DNA of 64,000 bases, from positions 18,768 through 82,767 of the IMG/VR virus record IMGVR_UViG_3300021387_000357; one strand, given 5' to 3'. A program made the position numbers and the translations under genes. Positions 12,859-56,732 of this stretch are shown here, in pieces (the stretch's first letter is position 1; every line of letters begins with the position of its first letter). Under the pieces are notes generated by a model that ran no database searches, was not told the origin of the DNA, and worked only from the letters and a program-made list of their open reading frames with translations. This stretch comes from a virus. Taxonomy: Duplodnaviria > Caudoviricetes.

Positions 12859-12990
12859 TTTAAATTATAATTCAATTTAATATATAATAAATAGTGGTGC
12901 CATGAGACGGGTATCTGGCTTAATTCTCCCCCGCAAGTACGCGCGAATGAAATTCTTGGAACATAGCCATTACTTATTATATAATATTTT

Positions 12991-13063
12991 GGTTTCTTCG
13001 ACTAATTGGTAAGTCAATAGCCTATCACAGCTAATTTTGTGAGTTCGAATCTCTCAGAAACCA
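12991..13063 (+). tRNA. atypical tRNA with 8-nt anticodon loop CTATCACA (ATC if read at 34-36)
   Basis: GGTTTCT/AGAAACC acceptor, normal D and T arms; TAGC/GCTA anticodon stem. Confidence 0.6.
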
Positions 13064-13065
13064 AT

Positions 13066-13238: not shown

Positions 13239-13312
13239 GGCCCGGTAGTGGAGCGGTTTAACACAGCTGACTCTAAATCAGCGGAACCTGGGTTCGAACC
13301 CCAGTCGGGTCC
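13239..13312 (+). tRNA. amber suppressor tRNA, anticodon CTA
   Basis: GGCCCGG/TCGGGTC acceptor; GCTGA/TCAGC stem, loop CT-CTA-AA; T-arm CTGGG-TTCGAAC-CCCAG. Confidence 0.92.
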
Positions 13313-13545
13313 CCTCGATAAACATAATCTTTACGCAGATATGTATTATCAAAAAGTTTTTTACCTTTTGTTCTTTAAAAACGTAAAGGTGACTAAAGAA
13401 GTCAAAATGCACTTCTTCCCCTGCTTGGGGTGAAAAGTGGTTATTTAATGATTCCTGCCAGAAGACGAATCATTACCCTCCGATGCGTAAAAAGGATAGA
13501 GGGTGCGAATATCTATCTTGTATAGTGTATCGGAACTATACATTT

Positions 13546-41408: not shown

Positions 41409-41446
41409 TATAAAAATTATTAACAATAAATTGATTAAGTTTGACC
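41409..41446 (-). promoter_or_regulatory. putative late promoter
   Basis: GGTCAA-24 nt-TTTTTATA upstream of the 41309 operon. Confidence 0.65.
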
Positions 41447-41514
41447 AAAAAATTTTCACCTTGACAACTATAAAAATTTTTGTTACAATTGGCGTAGAAA
41501 AGGAGATTAGAATT

Positions 41515-42003
41515 ATGAAAGTTTTATCATTAGATTTATCAACAAAATCAACTGGCTATTGTATTGGTTAGAATTAGATTATCATATCACATGGATGTGT
41601 TACCGCCAGTTCAAAAGATGTAATGAAACGTATTATAAAAATGAGAAATGAATTATCTAAAATAATTAAAGAAAATAAAATATAGAAAATTATTATGTAG
41701 TAGGTGCGGCCAGATTTTAATTCACATACTGGTAAAATATTAATGTGGTTGCAAGGTATAGTAACAATGGCCGCATATGAAATTAATTCAACAATAGAAT
41801 GGGATTTTATTGGGGCTTCAACATGGCGGGCAGCCCTTAAAATTAAACAAGGCCGCGGTATAAAAAGAGATGATCTCAAACCGCAAGATATATAGTATGT
41901 AAAAAATAAATACAATATTATAGTAAATGATGATGAGGCTGATGCTATATGTATATTTGATGCTTATAATGAAAAATTTAATAATGAGATAAATTGGGAA
42001 TAA
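41515..42003 (+). CDS. RuvC-like Holliday junction resolvase (6 in-frame TAG)
   Basis: VLSLDLSTKSTGY, I*KIIM**VRP, NDDEADA RNase H-fold motifs; AAGGAG RBS; ends TAA. Confidence 0.85.
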
Positions 42004-42037
42004 AAAATAGGGATAGATTAATTCTATCCCTATTTTT
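42002..42037. terminator. bidirectional terminator
   Basis: AAAAATAGGGATAGA/TCTATCCCTATTTTT. Confidence 0.75.
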
Positions 42038-42212
42038 CTTCTTTATCCTATTTTCGTACTTGAGCATTTATATAATTAATATAGCTTTTTTCAACATCAG
42101 AATAAATATCTTTTATAATATAATATATAACAATTGGAGGCAATTCTTTAGAGTTTAATAATATAGTGATCTATTTTTTTAACTTCTCTGCTGTCAATGA
42201 AATCGTTTCCAT
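42018..42212 (-). CDS. small TAG-recoded protein at end of tail operon
   Basis: METISLTAEKLKK*I...DKEEK*G*N; overlaps end of radical SAM gene; ends TAA. Confidence 0.6.
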
Positions 42213-43563
42213 TTACAATCCTCTTTTCTTCTCTTTTCTTAAATAATTGATAAAAATCTCTTAATCCTTTTTCTATTTCAAATTTTCTAAAATCAATACT
42301 GTATTCATCGCACCAAATATCAATTTCACAATTTTTTAACGTATTACATAATGGTTTATAAAAACAACTTTTACACTCTTCTTTTAATGGTGTTTTCTCT
42401 GCCCATTTGTTTATTTCATCTAAATCATAAGGAGTTTTATTAATATTTAAAGTATAATATCCATCATATGGATGATGCTCACATGTACTAATATATCCAT
42501 TTGGTGCAACAACAATACTAACACCGTCATCCGCCATGCAATGAGTTCTTTTTATCCCTCTTTGTAAATGGATTTCTTTATTTAAATAATTAATCATTTC
42601 TTTATAATTTTCAAAAATTTTTTTACGATCTTCCTTTTTATTATTAGCTGAATTAAAATTAATTAAATCATAAATAGGAGAAGAATAAATTGAAAAATTA
42701 ATATTTTTACCAAATTTATTTATTAAAAAATCAGCTAACTCTTTTTGCTAATTTACATTATTATAATCCAAATTCATTCTTATAACAACTTTTATATGAT
42801 TTTTTAATAAGAAACTAATATTATTAACAATAGTTAAAAAAGGATTTTCTTCCTTTTTTATATTTTTATAGTTTTTAATTTTATTATATGCTTCTTCATA
42901 TCCATCTATTGTAATTTGAAAAGTTTTTACATTCCATTTTTTTAAATCCTATTTAGAAAGATTTTTTATTAAATATCCATTAGATAAGAAAATAGATTGA
43001 TATTTAATATTATTTTTATTTAACTGATCACACATATAATTAATAATTTTAGTATTTAAAAGAGGTTCTCCACCAAACCACCTTAGTTTTAAAGGAGACT
43101 ATATTCTACCGCCTTTTCCACTTATAAAAAATTTTATTAAATCATCTATGACTTCAGTTGTCATAAACTAAGTTTTTATACCTTTTTCATAACAATAGTA
43201 ACATTGAGCATTACATGCGGTTGTGGTTAATAAAGTACATGTTTTTATTCTATTAAATCTTTTTTTTGGGAAACGTCGTTTTAACTCCTGTATTGATAAA
43301 TAATATAAAGAATAATCATCTATCTAAATTGGAATTTTATACCAAGACTCTACTAATATTTTCTATATTTCTGAATTAAACTAATTATACTATATATTTG
43401 TTAATACTATAATTTCACCAGTCCAAAGATTATATATAATATATTCATCATCTTGTTCTATTGTATAAATATATTTTAACCATTTATATTTTTTAGTTGA
43501 ATCATATTGTTGTTTTAAAATCGTCCTATCCATTGTTGTATAACTATTTTTTATAACTTTCAT
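42148..43563 (-). CDS. radical SAM/SPASM-domain enzyme (TAG-recoded, about 471 aa)
   Basis: CNAQCYYC, WFGGEP, SNGYL, QITIDG and SPASM-like CKSCFYKPLC; GGAG RBS. Confidence 0.85.
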
Positions 43564-43579
43564 AATTTAATCTCCAAAA

Positions 43580-46500
43580 TTACCAACCAGGTCCATAACA
43601 TTCAGTATCACAACTGCATTCCCATTCATCACACTCTGATGGTGGAGTATAATCACATCCGCCACACTCCCATTGACCACACTATTCATCACAGTCCTAC
43701 TAACATTGGCCACCACATTCTGTATCTATATCAGAAATAGCTTCCCAAATATTTTTAAATTCTTGAGCAATAGAACCGCCATCATTGTCATAATTATTAA
43801 AACCACTTCTATTAATATTAATTAAATCCATAGAATAAAGTGCACGTCCAAACACCTGTCCGCTACCATTCACAACAAAATCATAATCAAACGGATCATC
43901 ACTTTCTCCCTATCCATCACTACTAAACCACATCCACCATTCATCTGAATCATTTAATTTTGCAGAAATTGCCATAGAAGGATCTTCACTTTCATTAGCT
44001 AAAATATTTCTATGATAATTATCACTAATAACAAAATCACCTAAATTAATTTCTTTACTAGTAACATTAAAAAAGTTTTGACTACCAATGTTAATAGAAA
44101 AATTATCGCCATCATATCTTAAATAATTTCTTGATGATGATGTAAAATCAAATTTACCATCTGCTCCTAAAAAAGCACCTGCATTACTACTTGCAAAAGC
44201 ATTTTTATTAACAGTATGTAAAGAATTTGCCTCAATAGTCCATCCGCCTATTGTACCTGCAGTAGATTTTATACTACCATCAGAATAGACTTTAAATAAA
44301 TTATTAATATTAAATCTTAAAGATTTTCCGTCCTATGTATGTTTTTCATTTGCATATAAAATACTTTTATTGTCATTGCTTGAGAATGAATCAGTATTAA
44401 TTTTCCATCCAGCTATTGTTGAAGTTCCACCAGGAATCAACTTAATTTGTCCCTAACCTGCTCTACCAAAGGTGGCATTGCCAGTATCTGCATCTAAATA
44501 AATACTAGTAGCACCTTTTGAAAAACCAAGTAAACCATTATATGTAGTTGCATTACCGCTATTTAATTTTACAGCACCCATTACAATCCCTGTAAATCTA
44601 TTGTTGCTGTCTTTAACTCCAGCCCCCATTTGAGGAGCTAAAATATATCCACCTTCTTCGTTAATTTGAACACTATTACCATCCCAAGCATTTAAACTGG
44701 CTAAACCATAACGGTTCAATAAAAAATGAATTGGAACACTTAATCTACCAATAATAACTCCTTTTTGTGTATATACACAAGTAACCGCATTATTAATACA
44801 CTATCCATCATATTTAGAATTAGGTTTATATTTCCATTGATTTTTATTTAATTCTTTTCTATATGCTTCACTTGATAACAAAATTAATAAATTAGAATTA
44901 ATTAAATCACCAGCCTTATTTCTTTTTACATTCCCGCATGATCCTGGCGTATAACTAATAGAATGACTTCCATTAACTAAAGAAACATCTTCCCAAACAT
45001 TATTAATTTTTTCTTTACAGATAAATTCAAAAGGATGGGAATTATCATACTGCGGTGACGTACCATCTGGCGTATATATAACATATCTAAAACCAGTATA
45101 ATCTGCTAAAAATACTCTAAAATTACTATTATATGTCCATGCTGTTGTAACAGGAATGGTTCCATAATATGTTTTATTTTCATATGTAATACTACATTTA
45201 ATAGTATTAGCTAAAGGCGTATTTAATGCACTAGCTAAATGATCACCTAGATATTGAATATTACCATTTGATGCATTGGTAACTCTAAAAGCAGATTGAT
45301 CGCTTACTGTATTATTATATTTATTAGCAAGAATTTCCCAATGAACAAGAGCAGGTTTAGTTACTCCATCTATTGCAGCGGTTGACGCATTAAAACCCTC
45401 CCAAACCAATTCTCCACTGTGCCATAACTGTGCTTTAAATAATTGATAACCGCTAGATAATCCAATTTTTGTTTCATCTGCTGTTGAATTTAATCCATAA
45501 TTTAAAATATAATCACTTCCAGCTTTTGTAATCATAGGAAAAGCAGGTGGATCACTCATTCTAGTATTAGGAATTAATTTAACCACATACTAAGTCCCAT
45601 TTGTACCAGGCTCGCCCTGTTTAGCAAATGTAAACTAAGTTTCCGCAGTTAAATTCATTCCTTTATAATCAACTGTTAATTTAATTTGATTAATTTGTTT
45701 TTTAATGTCATATCTTTGAGCAATATCATAAACTAAATTAATAATATTATCATAATATTTATAGGTTTGTGTTGGATCTGTACCAGCGCTTTCTCCATTA
45801 TCCGCAGAATCAACTAATAAAGTATTCTTTATAGGAATTTGCCAACGAATTTTACAGTCTTTAGAATTTTTAATAATATTATTATCAATTGCGTTACCTA
45901 AATTATCATATATAGTAAAACTTAAAGCTTGAATCTACTGTTGAATATCAAGACTTCTATTATTAGGAGCTACTCCATATTCATTATATTGAAAAACCGC
46001 AGATCCATTATTTATAACAAGAGAATAAAGATCTTCTCCATTCAATGAATTGGTTAATGTAATTGCGGCAGTTCCTAAATAAATATTTTGATTATTATAA
46101 ACGGAACATTTAAATATAGCTAAGTTAGTGATATTACTTATTTGAACATCATATATTTTATTACCATCAACTCTCTGAATAAAATAAAATGCTTTAACTG
46201 CTTCTTCATATTTAGTTAAATTACTTGCTTCAGCATTGGCAAATTTTCTACCTACCGCAATATCATTTTGTAAATTAGTTAAATTATTATAAGCTGTGCT
46301 ATATGCACTATTTTGTTCTGTTGTTTCTAATAAATTCTAAAAAATACCAGTATCAGATTCAACTCCCCAATAATAATGGTATCCAGTTGGTTCTCCGCTA
46401 TTTACTCTACAAGTTAAAGTGGGGTGTCCTATATCATAATAAAATTTAGTACCCTAACTAGAGTCAATTGTTATCTAAGGTATATTTGCTGCTAAATTTT

Positions 46501-47854: not shown

Positions 47855-48013
47855 TCAAAGATTTAATGAATCCTTTACACCATCATAATTATATCTAGTA
47901 ATTTCAAAAAAATCATCTTTAGTAAGAATACCTTTTTTTACTAAATATCCTAAATATTGTAATGTATATACTCCAGCTTCCCATTTTCTTTTAATTAATA
48001 AAATACTTTCCAT
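47855..48013 (-). CDS. XkdX-family small phage protein
   Basis: IKRKWEAGVYT...LVKKGILTKDDFFEIT pattern; start revised to ATG 48013. Confidence 0.6.
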   Translation of the reverse strand: MESILLIKRKWEAGVYTLQYLGYLVKKGILTKDDFFEITRYNYDGVKDSLNL

Positions 48014-48077: not shown

Positions 48078-51000
48078 TTATCTACGCATTGCTCTTTGCG
48101 CTGCTAAATTAACTAAATCATTAAATGCCTATTCAATTTCTCGTTTGCTATTAACACTCGGGAAAGAAGCATCAATACGAACATTTTGTTCCAAATTCTG
48201 TCCACCGCCAAATGCATTATACAATCCTGATTTTATATCACTTACTTTTGTAAAGATATTCCCGCCAACAGAATCCATTACAGAACGTAAAATACTTACT
48301 GTACTTAAAAGATTTGATGTATCTGTAGCATTTAAAACTAATTCTTTTTTATGAAGAATTGCGGGTATTCCTTCATTTCCGCTCCAGTTTCCAGTATACC
48401 CGCCAGTGTCATAATGTCCATACTTCTTTTTATAATCTTCTTTTAAAGCCTATCTAACACTTTCTGCAGAGTCAGCACTTAAGCCTGTAGTCATCTTTTC
48501 AAAACTATCTGCGTCAACTCTAACAACAGAATAGCTACCATCAGACTATTGAAGAGTATTCCATGAACCTGTAGAATATGTTTTACTTAAAGTTGGCATC
48601 CTATCTTGTAACGGAGTATCTTTTGTATACCATCCTTTTGGGGCAGTTTCTGGCATTACACCAGGTCCGATATCGTTCTAAATCTATCCATCATCAAGAT
48701 AGTCATCTTCAAAATCATCAATTTCACCTCTAGTATCTTGAAGAGTTTCATGAATTGCGGATGCTGCTCGCTTAGCTGCTTCATAAACGTCATTATACTA
48801 TTCTTTTAAATTCTTAGCTGCTGTTTGTAAACTCTCAATAGCGGTTAACTCTTTATCCATTCTTTCTATTAAATCATCGTTTTTTTCAACTAAATCGGCG
48901 AATGAATCAGCTAAATCATCGACGCCCTGCTTAACATCATCAAGATCAATACCAGCAACTTGTGCCATCTCATCAAGTTCATCTTTATAATCTTCAGTAG
49001 CTTCTGTAATATTTTCAAAAGCTTCTTGACAAGTTGGAATAAAGCCACCCTATCCGGCAACTTTATCTGACATTTTCTGAATACCACTCTACCACGCGGG
49101 AACTAGATCTCCCATTAAGATATTCTTTTCATCATCTGCCATCTGTTGATAATTTTCAACATCTGTTCCATATATAGCCGCAATATCCATAAAAGCAGAA
49201 TTCATTAAGTTAGTTCTAATAACCATATTTTCTGCTATTTTATCATTAATATATTGACCATACTGCTCCCTTAATAAAGCAAGATTAGCTACTCTTTCTT
49301 CTTCTGATAAAGAAACATCTGTAACAATTTCTTTATATTGTTCTTGGAAATCCTTCCAAGCACTTAACATATCACCTAGATTAGATTGATATCTATCTTT
49401 ATCGAAATTATAAAGATCATTTTGTGCACTTGCAAGGTTTTGTTCAGCTTCGGCTATATTACCCTCATCCGCAACATATTCATATGAATAGTTACCTTGA
49501 GAATCTCTTCTTAACCTCATTGATGTTTTACTAGCTTGAGCATCTTCTAAAGCTATTCTTGCTTGTTCAATTTGTAATAATTTTTCAGCTCTTTCGACAT
49601 CATATTGAGTTAATTTATCTTTAGCTCTTAAATTTTGAAGTTGCTAATCCATGACTTTTTTCAAAGCACGCTGACTCTTTAAACTTTGAGTATCATTAAT
49701 AGCATTTTTAAATTTATTTTCTAACTATTGAACCGCAAAAGCTGAATTAATAGTATCTAAATACTCTTCAGCATTTTTATTCATTAAATCCCATTCAGTT
49801 GATAAATAATCAGTTCCTAATCCACCGCTAACTTTCTTATCTAATTCATCAAAAATCTTTTCAATAGCATTAAGATATTTATCTTTAAGAGTTTCAGCAG
49901 ATTTTTCAATGGTAGAATTTAAATTATTAAGAGTTTCTTTATAATTTTCTTCAAATTTCTTTGCAGATTCAGTATCTCCGCGAGCAACCGCCTCATCCCA
50001 TTCTTGTTTCCAGAAATCTCTTTGTTGTCTTAATGAATCAAGCTGTCTTAAATTATTATTTTGCAATGTCGTATAATATTTATTCATTGCATCATAATTT
50101 CTATCTCCATAGAGTAAAGACAAAAGATCTATATCATGTTCAATCAATTCACCAATTAATCCATAGTCTTCAATTTGCTTATCAAACTGATCCATAATAT
50201 CATCAATAGTGCTAAAGTAAGCTTCATCAATACTATCAATTAAATCTTCAACATCTTCCATTTGTTGCATTAATTCATCAAGATCACTCTGAAGATCCTA
50301 CATAGCTTGTTTTTTGTTGTTGCCATATATAGATGATTCTCCGCCACTATTAATTTCATCTAACTCATCTTGAGTTGCAAGTAATTGATTGGTTAAGGCT
50401 TCTAAGGTTCCCATTTGACCATTAATGTCAAAATAAGAAAGAACATCTTGATAATTTTGCGCGGCGTCCTTTAATAATTTATCAAATTCAGACTCTTTTA
50501 AAAGGTTAGAATGATTGAGGACATTTCTGCGGAAGTTATTCCAATCTTTTTCTGCTTTGCCCATATCAAGACGAATTTCAATATCAGTTCTAAATTTTTT
50601 AATATTATTTTCAAATTGCTATTGTCTTTTTGCTTCTCTCTAATCTTCATTATCCTACATTTCATCCATGAGTTTATCATAATTATCCATGCTCTTATGA
50701 AGATTTTTCATTTTTTCCTATTCATGTTTAATTTTTTTATCTAACTCAGAAAGTTGTTGATTTAGCTCTTTCTTACGAGTTTCATCTGTAGTCTAATTAT
50801 ATTCTTTAATTAATTCATTATATTGTTTAATTAATTCATTAATTTCAGTCTACTTTATTTTAAGTAAATCCATATAATTAGCAATTTTACCATATTCATC
50901 AAAAACAACACCTAAATTTTTTAACTATTCTTGTTGTTGTGTTTGGTCTTGTTTTTGTAGCTAATATTTTTCTTCTAATTTTCCAATTTGTTTATCAAGA

Positions 51001-54000
51001 ATTCCATTTTGCTAATTAAGATTATTAATTAAATCTTTACCATATAGTTTATCTTGTTTCTTTTTAGTATTTTCTAATTGTCTATTTAAATCACCAAGTT
51101 CAATATTAATATCATGATAAAGGTCTATCTATTCTTTTAATTCTTCTTTAGTCTATTTTTGAGAGGTATCTGGTTTAGATTCTTTTCCACCTCCACCTCC
51201 TCCGCCACTTTTCCCACCGCCAGGAGAAATAATCCCTCCATTATCATTGGTAGAATTTATTGGTTTATATGAAATTTTTTTAGGAATTCTTATTGTTCCA
51301 CCTTGAAAATTTAAGGCGCTATTTCCAGCTTCTGCTAAAGCATTTATCCTTCCAGTTCCAGACATTGCATTAATGCCTGCGGGTGCTTTTGTTGCTTGAA
51401 GACCTGTAATAGAAACTTCTTGCCATTCAATCTAAGACTCAACACCAATTGCACCTAAAATTTTATTACATTGTTTTTGTGTTAATCCAGCATCTCTTAT
51501 TAATTTATTTAACTGAGCAACAAATTTAGCATCTTGTAAATAAGCGTGCGTTTGTATATCTTCTGGAGATAATTGTTGAATTAAATTATTTAATTTATTT
51601 AAAACATCAACATTAATACTTTGTTCATTTAATTCTGCTTCAACTTGCACTTTTTCAATTTCTTGTTCAGCAAGTTTTTTTCTTAACCGCTAAACCGCTC
51701 CCTAAGTTCCCTAAGCGATTTCTTTAACATTTTCTAAATAATCAGTTGCATTTTCATCAGTTAAATCTATATGAATACCTGGAATATTGTTTATAATACC
51801 AATAAGTTCAGACATTGCATTCATAAATTTAAGAGATCCAGGATCAGCATTTAAATCATCTTTTAAATTTTTATAACTTTTTTGTAATTTCTATAAAGAA
51901 TCTATTAATTTTAAATCATTTAAAGCCATCTGTTGAAGAGCTTCATCAGATAAATTGAATTCCTATCCTAATTCATTTACTCCATCTACTGCACTATTAG
52001 TTTTTTCGCGAATTTTTTCTAATTGTTTTACATAATTTTGATATGTTGCACCAGAAACCTTTAAGGTTTTTAATTCTTCTCTAATAGCTTTATCTAATAA
52101 AGCATGATAGTGAACTTGATCTTGTATAGCTCCAGTTTTATAAAGTTCATTAACTCGTTCAACTGTTGTAGCATATTTTTCAATATCAGCAATCTATTCT
52201 TCAGTAAAAGCTCTATTTTCTTTTTTAGCTTGTTCAGTCTTTAATTCAATAGTTTTCTACAGAACCTTATCTAATGCTTGTTGATATTCTTCAGAGCCAG
52301 CTAGCCAAGTATCTTGTAATAGTTTTGCGGATTCTATTAATTCTTTATCATTATTTTGTGTAGCAGATTCAATTACCGCATTTAAATTTTCTTGATAAGC
52401 CTAATTTTCTTTTTTAGATAAATTTTTACCAGATTGAAGTTTTTCACCACTTTGAGAAATAACAGATAAAGAAGCAATATTATTTTGTTGCTATTGAATT
52501 ACTTGTTGGTCGGCAATTACTTTTTGAAGCACTTTCTACCAATTATCTGTAGTTAAAGTAACTCCTTCAAGACCTTTTTGAATATTCTACCAACTTACTC
52601 CCTGAGTATCAATAGCAAGAAGATCATCTAACAAACCTTCTTGTGGTTTACCTATTTTTAATTCAATATCTTTTCTAACCTCATCAATTGAATCTATAAA
52701 AGGATCACTAATACTTCTTACTAATCCATCTGTATTAAAATTCTGTCCGTCTAAATTTAAACCAAAATAATAATTAAATAATTGTGATAAAGTATCTTGA
52801 CTAACATTTTGTAAATTACTGTTTTTAATTATTGCATTTAAAGATTCTGCTAAATAATTAGCTCTCTATTGTCCAGTTTCAAAAGCAATATCTTTGAATT
52901 TTTCATTTTCTGTTTTTAATTGAGAAAATAATTCTGGAGAAGTTTTATAAATTGTTAATAACTATGCTTCAAAATCTTTTCCTTGAGATAGATAGGTAGA
53001 ATATTGTTCTGCCATCCCCTATTTATGTCCCTATGCCCAAGCCGCAATTAATCCTTCTGCGTCTGTTATTCCAGCTTGTTTTAACTTTTCATAATTAGAA
53101 CTATCTCCACTTCCATACATTAATTGTTGAAGCAACATCGTGGGATCTGCATTTGAAGCCTAACTAGCAGTCTACTGCGCAGCAACTAATCTTCCTTTTG
53201 CTATCTACCACGTACTTATATAAGTATCAATTGATTCTAATAAATTTTCTTTATAATTATTAGCTAATGTGTTTAAAGTTGTATCTCGACTACGAGCAAA
53301 AATATTTAAAATTTCTTCATATCTTTGTCTTTCATCTTCAGATAAATCTTTAATAGTTTTGCTACTTAGTTCTCTAAATTCATTAGCATAGTATGTCATT
53401 GCAGTATTATTTCTTTGAATGGCAGCTTGAATAATAGAATTAGTTATATCTGGATTTAAATCAGCAATTGAAGAATTAAAATTAGTATTAATATTTTCTT
53501 GTTGTATATCAACTAATTCTCTTGCATTTACAGATTGTACTCTTCTACCTTCAACAGCATTAGTAAAATCATTACTATTAACAAAACCTTTTAATTCTAA
53601 TTCATTCTTTTTCTATAATTTTGCTATTGTTTCATCAAGAGCATTATTATTTGCTAAAATTGCTTCGCCTTGAGCATTATATGCAGCAACAATTTCTGGA
53701 TTAACACCAGCTATTTTATCTTTAATCTAATTCCATCTGTCTTTTTCTTTATCTGAAAGATTATTTATGTTTTGATCATATTGTCCTGCAGCATTAGATA
53801 AAGAATTATACTCATCTCTTAAAGATTCTAAATCTTGAATAGTATTTTTTGTAGATGAAACATTATTTGCTAATTCAGCTTGTTTATCATTAAAAGTAGA
53901 TAAAGCTTGCTCAGCCTATTTAGCTGACATAGTAAGCTTATCGTATGCTGCAACCAATCCAATTACAGCGGCAGCTACTAATATGTATGGATTAAGTAAT

Positions 54001-56732
54001 AAAGTTTTATTTAATAATTGAATTTTTATTGCTGCTTCTCCAGAAGCCACTTTTACTAATGAAATAGCTCCAGCGTGTGCAATTTCAGTTGTTGTTGCTG
54101 CCATAGCTGCAACATATTCTTCTGTTGTTACAACTTTCATTAAACCTAATGATGTAGTGGCTTTTACAAACCCATTTGCAAGCATTGGAAGAACAAAAGC
54201 CGCTCCAGTAATTATTTTAATAAATTTCTATCCAGCAGATAAATCAGAGTTTTTCCAAATACTACCAAGATTTTGCACCTGTTGAATGGCAGAACCCATT
54301 TGAGCAATACCGCCAGCCGCTTTAGCCCAATTTTCAATTTGAGCAGCTCTTTCTATTCTTTCTTGTCCAGTAATAAAAGAAACAGTAAGCTGTTCTAATT
54401 TTTGTTGCTTCTATTGTAAGTTATTTATAAAAGCTGGATCACTCATTACCTACAACAAATCTTTATATCTTTTATTAATTTTATCTCCAGCAGCTTTTGT
54501 GGCATCAACTAATTTTTGAAGGAAAGATTTAAATATTTGTTCAGCAACTTCTGGTTTTTCAGAATTAATTTTTTGTATTACTTTTGTCCATTCTGTGCCT
54601 AAAGATTTAACTTTATTTTGAATTTCTGGCATTCCATCAAAATAACCACCGCTTTCAAATTCTGTAAGTTTATCTATAAAAACTTGAACTTCATCAGTGG
54701 CTTGATTAAATGCTTCTTCAAAATTTTGAGTAGCATCTTTTCCATTTTTCATTACTGAAAAGGCTTTATTTAAATTGGCTTCAAGCTATTTACCAACATT
54801 TTTAGATTGTTCTGCTATTTCTTTTAATCCAGTAATTTCTTCATCTATAATTTCTTGAACTTGATCTGCCTAATTTGAACCTAAAAATTCATTTAATGGT
54901 GTTGTTACAGCAAAATCAGTATTAAGTAAATCTTCTAATGGTTTCTTTTTTTCTTCTAAACTAGCAATTTCATTACCTAATTGAGTAATATCATTAAGTA
55001 ATTTTTGCATACCAGAAAATTGTTCTGGTGTCATTAATCTTGCTAATTCAAGTAATTGTTCTCTATTTTCTAATAATTTTTTACTGGTATCATCTAACTT
55101 AGGAATTCCTTGCCAGTCTTTTGTTGCTTCAAGAGCTTGCCTGAATTGTTCAGCATTATCTCGACCAATTTCAAAATTAGTAATAGTAGTATTAATTCCT
55201 CTAGCAATTTGCTCACTAAATACAGTCAAGCCAACAGCACCAAGCATTTTTAGTACTCCAACTCCGCCACCAAGACTATCAACCAAATTAGCAGTTAAAT
55301 TTGCGGCAACTGTTAATCCATCAGCTATACTATTAATACTATCAGTGTCAGATAGACTGTCATATATATTTTCAACAGCTGCTTTTAAAGTTTGTAAGTG
55401 TGCGGCGGTTGACTCCATATAAATATCTTGTTGCTCTTGTAAAGTACCTGCCGCATTTTGAGCAGTATTTAATGCTTCATTATATTTCTCAAAATTATCA
55501 AATAAAGCAATCAAATTAGAATACTGTCTTTGACCAGCCATTGTTTGTGCAAGAGAAATCTGTTGCTCTCTAGTCAAATCTTGCCAACGACCGCCAATTT
55601 CTTCCATAACTTCACCCATATCACGAAGATTACCAGCAGCATCAAGAACATTAAATCCTAATTCTGCCATTTTACCAGAATAATTACCAAGAGTAACACC
55701 ATCTTCATCAATACCAGCTTTAATATCAGAAATACGAGCATATACGGTTCTTAATGCAGTACCAACTGATTCAGGAGCTTGACGAGTAACAGATATAATA
55801 GTTGATAATTGTGCAGCTAATTGATCTTCACCAACTCCCATCGCGGCAGCCGCACTTGCAACCTTACTCATACCAGTACTTAGTTCCTCAAGGTCTGATG
55901 CTGTAGTAGCAGCAACCGCAGCAAGCCTATCAATATAAAGCTATGCTTCTTCCGCACTAACTTTATAACCATTCCAAACAGCTGTTAATTCCTCTGAAAC
56001 ATCTGAAGTAGATTGCCCAGTAACGTTGGCTGTCATTAGAGTAATTTTAGCTCTTTCCTATATTTCTTTATCAGATAAACCCTGTTGTGCATAAATTAAT
56101 GCCGCATTTGTATAGTCTGTTGTAGTTTTACCTAAACTTTGGGCAGCTTCATTTGCTTTAATCGCAAAATTACCCATTTCTTCAGCAGACTTACCTGTAA
56201 CTATTCTAATGTTATTTAATGATGTATCTAATGATTTTGTATAACCCCATGCTTGTTCAACCGCCCTAGACATATTATTAACTGCACCAGAAGCTAAATT
56301 CCATTTAATAGTATTGGTAAGAGTGGTTGCCATCTTATCTAATAAGCCATGAGTCTCTTTTAATTGAATATTTGTGCTTAATACTTGAGAAGATAAACTT
56401 CTAAATGCATTTTCTCCACTAGTCCCCGCAGATTTAAAAGCTGTATAAATTTTCTATATAGATGTTTGAGAATTAATTAAAGATTTATTAAAAGTCTATA
56501 TATTTACAGTATTTAATTTAGCATTAAAAGCAGTCTTTAAAGCTTCTTCTACATTCTGAGCTTCTCTTTTTATACTATTAAGCATCGTTGTAGCAGATGC
56601 TGCATCAGTATGATTAATCTTCATTACATCACTAATTTTCATTTTCTGAATTTCTTGTAATGAAGCTTTTAATTTATTTAAATCGCCAGATTTTACATCA
56701 AAACCAACCTGGTATCTTATTTCATTTGCCAT
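48078..56732 (-). CDS. tail tape measure protein (TAG-recoded, about 2884 aa)
   Basis: Eleven track ORFs from 56496 to 49089 share one frame; TMP-like core (ALIYAQQG, APESVGTALRTVYARI, AGQRQYSNLIALFDN); ends TAA at 48078; not every codon was checked. Confidence 0.85.

Follow-up and report, generated by a model that had tools for sequence, protein, structure and literature searches.

The window analysed here is a stretch of 64,000 nucleotides, corresponding to bases 18768-82767 of one 82.8-kb genome contig from a gut phage (Duplodnaviria; Caudoviricetes; IMG/VR record IMGVR_UViG_3300021387_000357). It carries a two-gene module in which a large tail protein, P0002, ends in an acidic segment very rich in cysteines and is directly followed by the gene of a radical S-adenosylmethionine (SAM)/SPASM enzyme, P0001. 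We propose that the two constitute an enzyme-substrate pair, the enzyme stapling the Cys-rich tail by thioether bonds and the product being retained, an explanation that we hold to be reasonably probable as a whole. Its parts call for different degrees of confidence. That P0001 acts on the tail of P0002 is in our opinion very likely; thioether chemistry, suggested by analogy with characterised maturases, is the favoured option for the reaction, and the gene context would speak, to about the same extent, for a product that stays on the virion.

A recoded gene pair and its cysteine-rich end

Under the standard genetic code, merely scattered short open reading frames (ORFs) are called across the module, while reading TAG as a residue yields long genes. 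P0002 (43580-47728) is then translated into 1382 aa, with 18 TAG codons read as Gln, and P0001 (42148-43563) into 471 aa, with eight. A preliminary description of this DNA had announced that both genes need TAG readthrough and are largely invisible to standard annotation, and ORF calling bears this out on both counts. Two details of it are corrected here: it is the minus strand that encodes the two genes, and the gap before the enzyme gene, given as 17 nt, is a spacer of 16 nt (43564-43579, minus strand). In this spacer a GGAG precedes the ATG of P0001 by 8 nt, an arrangement consistent with co-expression of P0001 with the tail gene.

A suppressor tRNA with anticodon CTA was detected by ARAGORN on the plus strand (13239-13314), and would be the requirement for reading both genes through their TAG codons. 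The residue inserted was assumed, by analogy, to be Gln because GenBank assigns Phass-1, a phage with a match to P0002, to the ‘Caudoviricetes code 15 clade’. This match, which covers ~100 residues with 37% identity, is the sole, short match to P0002 among GenBank phages, and the annotation of Phass-1 gave no help. When aligned to the tRNA-Gln genes of the phage itself, the CTA suppressor tRNA displayed no resemblance to them, and for this reason the identity of the TAG residue remains an assumption. The suppressor lies in a region of 21 tRNA genes which also holds a call with a four-base anticodon (atca; 12990-13064, plus strand; ARAGORN) abutting a tRNA-Met; this could be a frameshift-type tRNA or an artefact.

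The proposed substrate is the C-terminal end of P0002, a core of 46 aa (43583-43720, minus strand) delimited by translation and Cys density. It comprises ten Cys, 12 Asp/Glu and seven Gly; translation, with three TAG codons inside the core, thus agrees with the acidic end and the ten Cys in 46 aa attributed earlier to this 1382-aa protein. The remaining 1336 residues contain 12 Cys, which gives P ~1e-11 for the core on the protein’s own background. Over all six frames of the 82.8-kb genome, the core is the densest Cys window (10 per 45 aa); the next best windows have seven and are mostly found in non-coding frames, and no short Cys-rich ORF was detected elsewhere in the genome. The core displays the motif ECGGCDY and a terminal CYGPGW, and the Cys positions and the terminal GPG are conserved in the relatives L001, L002-L004 and L006. 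It also holds three Trp and two Tyr, including the conserved terminal Y-G-P-G-W, and no Arg. Three C-x3-D/E motifs of the PapB type occur in the core, as expected by chance at such Asp/Glu density, and they were not used as evidence.

Directly before the core, alignment A3 reveals a leader-like segment of the form (I/L)W-x-A-(I/V)-x-x-I-(D/E) (43721-43780, minus strand), which is our proposed recognition sequence. Its W and A are invariant in the six relatives of this alignment, including L139 which has no Cys in its tail, and distant lineages show comparable amphipathic segments ahead of their Cys core. Judging from its sequence and position, this segment is what the N-terminal domain of the enzyme would most naturally recognise. 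An additional or alternative role in the structure of the fibre may be considered, since W and A survive in L139, where the enzyme is missing, and similar helix-plus-acidic ends are found in other enzyme-less relatives.

Joint occurrence of cysteine tail and enzyme

Within the phage family, five lineages possess a Cys-rich end (the window, L001, L002-L004, L006 and L141), and in all five the enzyme gene is located immediately downstream. Among the relatives without Cys, L139/L140 stands closest, with 81% identity over the N-terminal 700 residues. The leader-like motif and an acidic tail persist there, but all tail Cys and the terminal CYGPGW are gone and the enzyme gene is missing; the next genes, an ORF of ~69-83 aa and a 162-aa gene on the opposite strand, are still in place. 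According to the gene tables, the P0151 contig and L143 have neither Cys tail nor enzyme and keep the flanking genes. The 22 complete loci of the family in IMG/VR include none with a Cys tail (0/22) and none with an enzyme within 8-10 kb (0/22). Altogether, ~25 syntenic Cys-less relatives are devoid of precisely this gene. Several negative loci being near-duplicates, the comparison amounts to ~20 independent negatives and five positives, on which the association between tail and enzyme is perfect. Synteny of Cys tails with radical SAM genes in relatives had been put forward as a check in the preliminary description, and it is strongly upheld here.

L141 provides a particular case. Its tail protein is 90% identical to P0002 over 700 residues, yet it carries a different Cys tail, and its enzyme (423 aa; L141:5001-10409, a Logan contig from SRR23387588) belongs to another tail-associated clade of the enzyme tree described below. 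Tail and enzyme have therefore been exchanged together.

These data bear on the possibility that enzyme and tail have no functional relation, the tail binding a metal or an Fe-S cluster or forming disulfides while the enzyme serves some other target of phage or host. Dense Cys/Asp motifs are classic metal sites, and certain phage fibres are known to have metals at their tips. However, tail and enzyme are jointly present or absent without exception in ~30 related loci, they have been swapped jointly, their pairing recurs in enzymes that share 25-35% identity, and the genome offers no other Cys-rich candidate. We consider such independence highly improbable, and retain P0001 and the P0002 tail as an enzyme-substrate pair.

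The pairing is not restricted to this family. In at least 20 further phage or prophage loci, homologues of P0001, 25-35% identical, directly follow tail proteins of 650-1070 aa whose last 45-60 residues include 5-12 Cys amid Asp, Gly and Ser, several of them finishing in GPG. These loci correspond to standard-code phages and to prophages with integrases nearby. The Cys-tailed proteins of L018, L019 and L026 belong to PF06605 Prophage_tail (Pfam, E 4e-15 to 4e-22). As a control, 262 of the 296 other ORFs of at least 300 aa in these loci have at most two Cys in their last 45 residues. While a single-sequence scan of IMG/VR with P0001 returned nothing, a profile scan did find homologues; among GenBank phages, P0001 gave three weak matches.

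In a FastTree phylogeny of 119 enzymes (SH-like support only), the tail-associated enzymes fall mainly into two clades. One of them, which holds the window, is tail-associated in 13 of 13 rows (support 87), the second one in 10 of 11 (support 100). The ‘tail’ label requires 6 changes on this tree compared to 23.9 when shuffled, and none of 500 shuffles was as low. The remaining homologues are mostly bacterial, and all cellular relatives retrieved come from gut or rumen anaerobes; this fits the oxygen sensitivity of these enzymes and the idea, presented below, that thioethers stand in for disulfides. Where a precursor is recognisable, the bacterial homologues (~30% identical) adjoin precursors of ~45-90 aa with Cys/Asp-rich cores, and one such precursor of 89 aa ends in GPG, as phage tails do. 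From their sequences, the phage tails look like cores of peptides made by the ribosome and modified after translation (RiPPs) that would have been grafted onto the end of a structural protein.

Two side observations concern these relatives. In the enzyme-less L148 and L172 (IMG/VR), as in L139/L140, the pre-tail helix is kept and followed by short poly-Asp/Glu/Asn ends without Cys, so that the Cys-tail module seems to be represented there by a precursor or by a remnant. On the bacterial side, Prevotellaceae/Bacteroidales contigs from metagenome-assembled genomes (L061, L062, L068, L069 and L132) harbour enzyme homologues beside precursors of ~47 aa that share the leader K-K-K-F-E-K-P-x-M-E-V-V and short Cys/Asp cores; by their sequences, these look like an uncharacterised RiPP family of rumen Bacteroidota.

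The enzyme and its probable chemistry

Sequence and predicted fold both point to P0001 as a SPASM-type peptide maturase. Pfam detects PF04055 (37.6 bits for a cut-off of 29.5) and PF13353 (40 bits), and the SPASM profile TIGR04085 scores 29.6 bits for a cut-off of 27 over residues 342-407; the radical SAM gene with a CxxxCxxC motif and a SPASM-like Cys cluster, as first described, is thus recognised by profiles above their cut-offs. The CxxxCxxC motif for the radical SAM [4Fe-4S] cluster, CNAQCYYC (C117/C121/C124; 43192-43215, minus strand), is invariant in alignment A1, which gathers 24 enzyme homologues. The SPASM region (42310-42540, minus strand), defined by TIGR04085 and by invariant columns, contains C342, C361, C397, C400, C406, C412 and C418, and these seven invariant Cys would suffice for two auxiliary clusters. 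A match to phrog_1802 was also obtained (1e-27).

In NCBIfam, every one of the best profiles matched over the full length describes a maturase acting on Cys-rich peptides. The best curated family is TIGR04463 (1.7e-35, 122.7 bits for an equivalog cut-off of 525), accompanied by Clo7bot (110.9 bits for 600), CefB (104.9 for 600), FlmE/OhkG (103.9 for 500) and the PapB family (2.6e-22, 79.5 bits for 340), with the geopeptide maturase also among the full-length matches. On these scores P0001 is related to the TIGR04463, Clo7bot, CefB, FlmE/OhkG and PapB families and is a member of none.

An AlphaFold model built from 24 homologues has a mean confidence (pLDDT) of 82.9, and its best Foldseek match is CteB (8.8e-15). 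Re-alignment with VIA superposes residues 1-450 of the CteB chain on residues 29-441 of the model (Z 20.6). Since this alignment brings model residue 29 onto chain residue 1, it spans the N-terminal domain of CteB. The corresponding domain of P0001 (residues 1-105; 43249-43563, minus strand), modelled with pLDDT above 90 and lying inside the range aligned to CteB and to TigE, is a probable peptide recognition domain resembling the RiPP recognition element (RRE). The full-length maturase profiles of NCBIfam align from residue ~27-36 of P0001. A sequence search of the PDB retrieved MoaA alone (5.5e-4).

The enzyme could modify the tail by another SPASM chemistry, such as formation of formylglycine in the manner of anSME, C-C or C-O links to Trp or Tyr, or sactionine bonds to alpha carbons. 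Indeed, VIA ranks anSME first for the catalytic core (residues 105-440, to which its alignment is confined; Z 21.1), the tail offers three Trp and two Tyr with a conserved aromatic terminus, and the equivalog cut-offs of all thioether maturases are missed. Several features nevertheless make these reactions unlikely. The tail contains no C/S-x-P-x-R motif, the substrate motif of anSME in sulfatases, and is devoid of Arg, and no sulfatase gene was recognised among the annotated neighbours. anSME is without the N-terminal domain common to P0001, CteB and TigE, and the strongest profile matches are to maturases of Cys-rich peptides. Moreover, what the enzyme-less relatives have lost are the Cys and not the surroundings of the aromatic residues. 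Thioether formation on the Cys-rich tail therefore keeps our preference.

Tail context, proposed mechanism and related systems

The gene for the tape measure protein (2884 aa; 48078-56732, minus strand) is recognised by phrog_4211 (1.1e-65) and 11 other tape-measure PHROGs, PF10145 being recorded at the tape measure of relatives. Its position upstream places P0002 in the tail-tip part of the operon. Between the two lies a 52-aa XkdX-like ORF (47855-48013, minus strand; PF09693 at 7.7e-4, below cut-off) that is conserved in all relatives, and the order tape measure, small ORF and large protein is kept in them. The tape measure gene itself carries 53 TAG codons, and a length of 2884 aa would imply an exceptionally long tail.

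Residues 1-700 of P0002 are modelled as a string of Ig/FN3-like beta-sandwiches (pLDDT 84.7). The fold search with this part returned generic Ig/FN3 multi-domain matches only (complement C5, S-layer proteins and, with a low TM-score, fibres of the J/pb4 type), and on the model a hub-like fold would be neither shown nor excluded. Residues 1069-1297 share homology (E 6e-12) with the C-terminal part of a prophage tail protein, that of L010, for which PF06605 is recorded in the contig database; our own Pfam scan of the L010 protein gave none at E up to 0.01. More than 428 database homologues of ~1240-2240 aa share the N-terminal 700 residues of P0002 at 50-90% identity. Their C-termini are mutually unrelated, some carrying Peptidase_S74, a chaperone domain usual in fibres and spikes, and one carrying CBM_5_12, and P0002 itself consists of a conserved N-terminal part of ~1100 residues and a variable C-terminal module. 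As far as sequences can tell, this pattern would be that of a tail fibre whose anchor is conserved while its distal module can be exchanged. In the large gene of L165, L169, L171 and L173 (IMG/VR), the reading frame breaks after ~320-435 residues despite TAG readthrough; a further stop codon may be recoded there, or the gene may contain a frameshift or an intron.

We call P0002 a tail protein because it follows the tape measure, has an Ig/FN3-like N-terminus, shares C-terminal homology with the L010 protein, and because PF06605 proteins elsewhere bear similar tails. This assignment is well supported by context, and P0002 is probably the central fibre. The virion protein announced in the preliminary description is supported by this context, and no profile of a tail family was matched: P0002 gave nothing in NCBIfam or PHROGs, and nothing, PF06605 included, in Pfam, where E values were accepted up to 0.1 for the whole protein and up to 1 for residues 701-1382. 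We also considered that a distal-tail (DUF6558) protein and a tail-tip protein might be fused in P0002, and rejected this as no similarity to the DUF6558 protein of L010 was found.

On the other side of the enzyme gene, a 64-aa helical ORF without family match (42018-42212, minus strand, four TAG) overlaps the last 65 nt of P0001 in another frame. Relatives have a separate ORF of 65-83 aa, with or without enzyme, and the distant prophage L010 a similar one of 68 aa. As a partner or substrate this ORF was discarded: it has no Cys cluster and is kept where the enzyme is missing. Further on, a RuvC-like Holliday junction resolvase gene (41431-42003, plus strand; six TAG; phrog_827, 1.7e-20) interrupts the tail operon on the opposite strand, at a position kept in relatives as the 162-aa gene. 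No protease or exporter was recognised among the immediate neighbours of the module in the window, nor by recorded Pfam hits in those loci of relatives whose gene tables were read.

This last result concerns the fate of the product. The modified peptide might be detached from P0002 and set free at lysis as a RiPP in its own right, for example a bacteriocin or a signal, P0002 serving as a giant leader or carrier. Bacterial homologues act beside short precursors, presumably processed and exported; sister proteins end in the self-cleaving Peptidase_S74, so that C-terminal cleavage is common there; and the leader-like motif stands directly before the core. Release remains unlikely to us, as no protease or exporter was recognised and as the core is invariably fused to a tail-tip protein, across more than 25 loci and two separate clades of the enzyme, which is hard to explain with an arbitrary carrier. 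Moreover, in the lineage of the window no conserved cleavage motif, for example a double glycine, was seen between the leader-like segment and the core. Between the two outcomes envisaged at first, cross-linking of a tail tip and a released peptide, the former fits better and the latter is less favoured. We thus prefer retention on the virion because no protease or exporter is recognised, the partner is always a tail-tip protein and the 64-aa ORF is not specific to the module.

The following mechanism can be proposed. In an anaerobic host, enzyme and tail protein would be produced together from the late tail operon, probably co-translated. P0001 would use its N-terminal domain to dock on the leader-like segment directly before the core, and the radical SAM core together with two SPASM clusters would turn several of the ten Cys into intramolecular thioether bridges. 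By analogy with CteB, PapB, QhpD and CrpC, these would most likely be of the ranthionine type, to Asp/Glu or other side-chain carbons. Left uncut, the modified tail would tip the central tail fibre with a small knot that neither reductants nor proteases undo, at the variable end of the P0002 family, which probably determines host range. More tentatively, phages of strict anaerobes of gut and rumen might, with an enzyme of their own, staple the tip of their central fibre by thioethers replacing disulfides, since disulfides cannot survive in a reducing habitat, and a swappable cassette of tail and enzyme could shape stability or receptor binding of the tip. We submit this broader idea with clearly less assurance than the stapling itself.

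Several points weigh against the proposed stapling. Regarding the substrate, the TAG residue is assumed and three of the 18 TAG codons of P0002 fall inside the Cys-rich end, and the Cys tails match none of the curated precursor families. P0002 has no Pfam or PHROG match and its N-terminal fold matches are generic, so that its location on the virion rests on gene order and relatives. Regarding the enzyme, P0001 scores far under the equivalog cut-off of every curated maturase family matched, its residues 1-100 scanned alone gave no Pfam match and no RRE/PqqD, and anSME, which forms formylglycine, matches the catalytic core as well as CteB does. The bond type would be extrapolated from relatives that are 15-20% identical at the structural level. 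Finally, close relatives manage without Cys and without enzyme; the modification is therefore an optional extra which is not needed for assembly.

If true, this proposal would add a new covalent chemistry to virion assembly, where HK97-type isopeptide bonds are already known, and would explain why an ‘orphan’ radical SAM gene recurs in the tail operons of phages and prophages from gut and rumen. As the cassette is present in some natural relatives and absent from others that are otherwise syntenic, a ready-made comparison for stability and adsorption is at hand. As annotation with the standard code shreds both genes, such modules would be hidden in recoded phages. A compact enzyme-plus-tag pair able to staple the C-terminus of a large protein could also serve protein engineering.

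SPASM thioether maturases are known for small secreted peptides. The module shares with CteB of Clostridium thermocellum (PDB 5WGG and 5WHY), which acts on the SCIFF peptide CteA, a Cys-rich sequence as substrate and a three-part build, in which the N-terminal domain, a probable recognition domain in P0001, precedes the radical SAM core and a SPASM domain suited to two auxiliary clusters. P0001 is nonetheless 18-20% identical to CteB, and CteA is a free peptide of ~45 residues with an N-terminal leader, whereas the core described here is the last 46 residues of a 1382-aa protein. PapB/freyrasin and the ranthipeptide clusters with short precursors have, like the P0002 tail, cores rich in Cys and Asp/Glu. 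Their products are free, presumably exported peptides, and the phage module has no separate precursor; the short precursor, the leader protease and the exporter by which ranthipeptides and sactipeptides are defined were not found with it. On the phage side, siphophage proteins of the PF06605 Prophage_tail family (Gram-positive hosts) occupy the same position after the tape measure, and some of them carry a Cys tail and the enzyme. P0002 differs from them by the absence of a PF06605 hit and of a preceding distal-tail (DUF6558) gene, and by its Ig/FN3-like N-terminal 700 residues.

Two systems with whole proteins as substrates are closer in this respect. QhpD is a radical SAM/SPASM enzyme that forms Cys-to-Asp/Glu thioethers retained in the functional protein QhpC (PMC13692751). 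The match of its family TIGR03906 to P0001 is weak (2.2e-08), and QhpC is a small enzyme subunit (quinohemoprotein amine dehydrogenase gamma) with a cleaved leader and no phage relation. CrpC of Methanococcus voltae (TIGR04463) has an RRE next to its radical SAM core and SPASM domain and bears three [4Fe-4S] clusters; experiments have shown that it introduces ranthionine links into its full-size neighbour protein CrpA, within the Cys-rich C-terminal region (PMC13692751, September 2026). Its authors point out that evidence for large protein substrates is scarce, and QhpC and CrpA are the whole-protein substrates of radical SAM/SPASM thioether maturases which they name (PMC13692751). P0001, below the TIGR04463 cut-off, does not belong to the CrpC family. 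CrpA, a repeat protein of cellular origin, has its leader-like domain at the N-terminus; in the phage module, the substrate would be a viral structural protein whose recognition segment stands directly before the core. Full-text literature searches found no paper in which tail or virion proteins of phages undergo radical SAM or thioether chemistry. While the class of the enzyme and its likely chemistry are known, the nearest precedents in print, QhpD/QhpC and CrpC/CrpA, are both cellular; what would be new is the end of a virion tail protein as the substrate, together with its cassette-like evolution.

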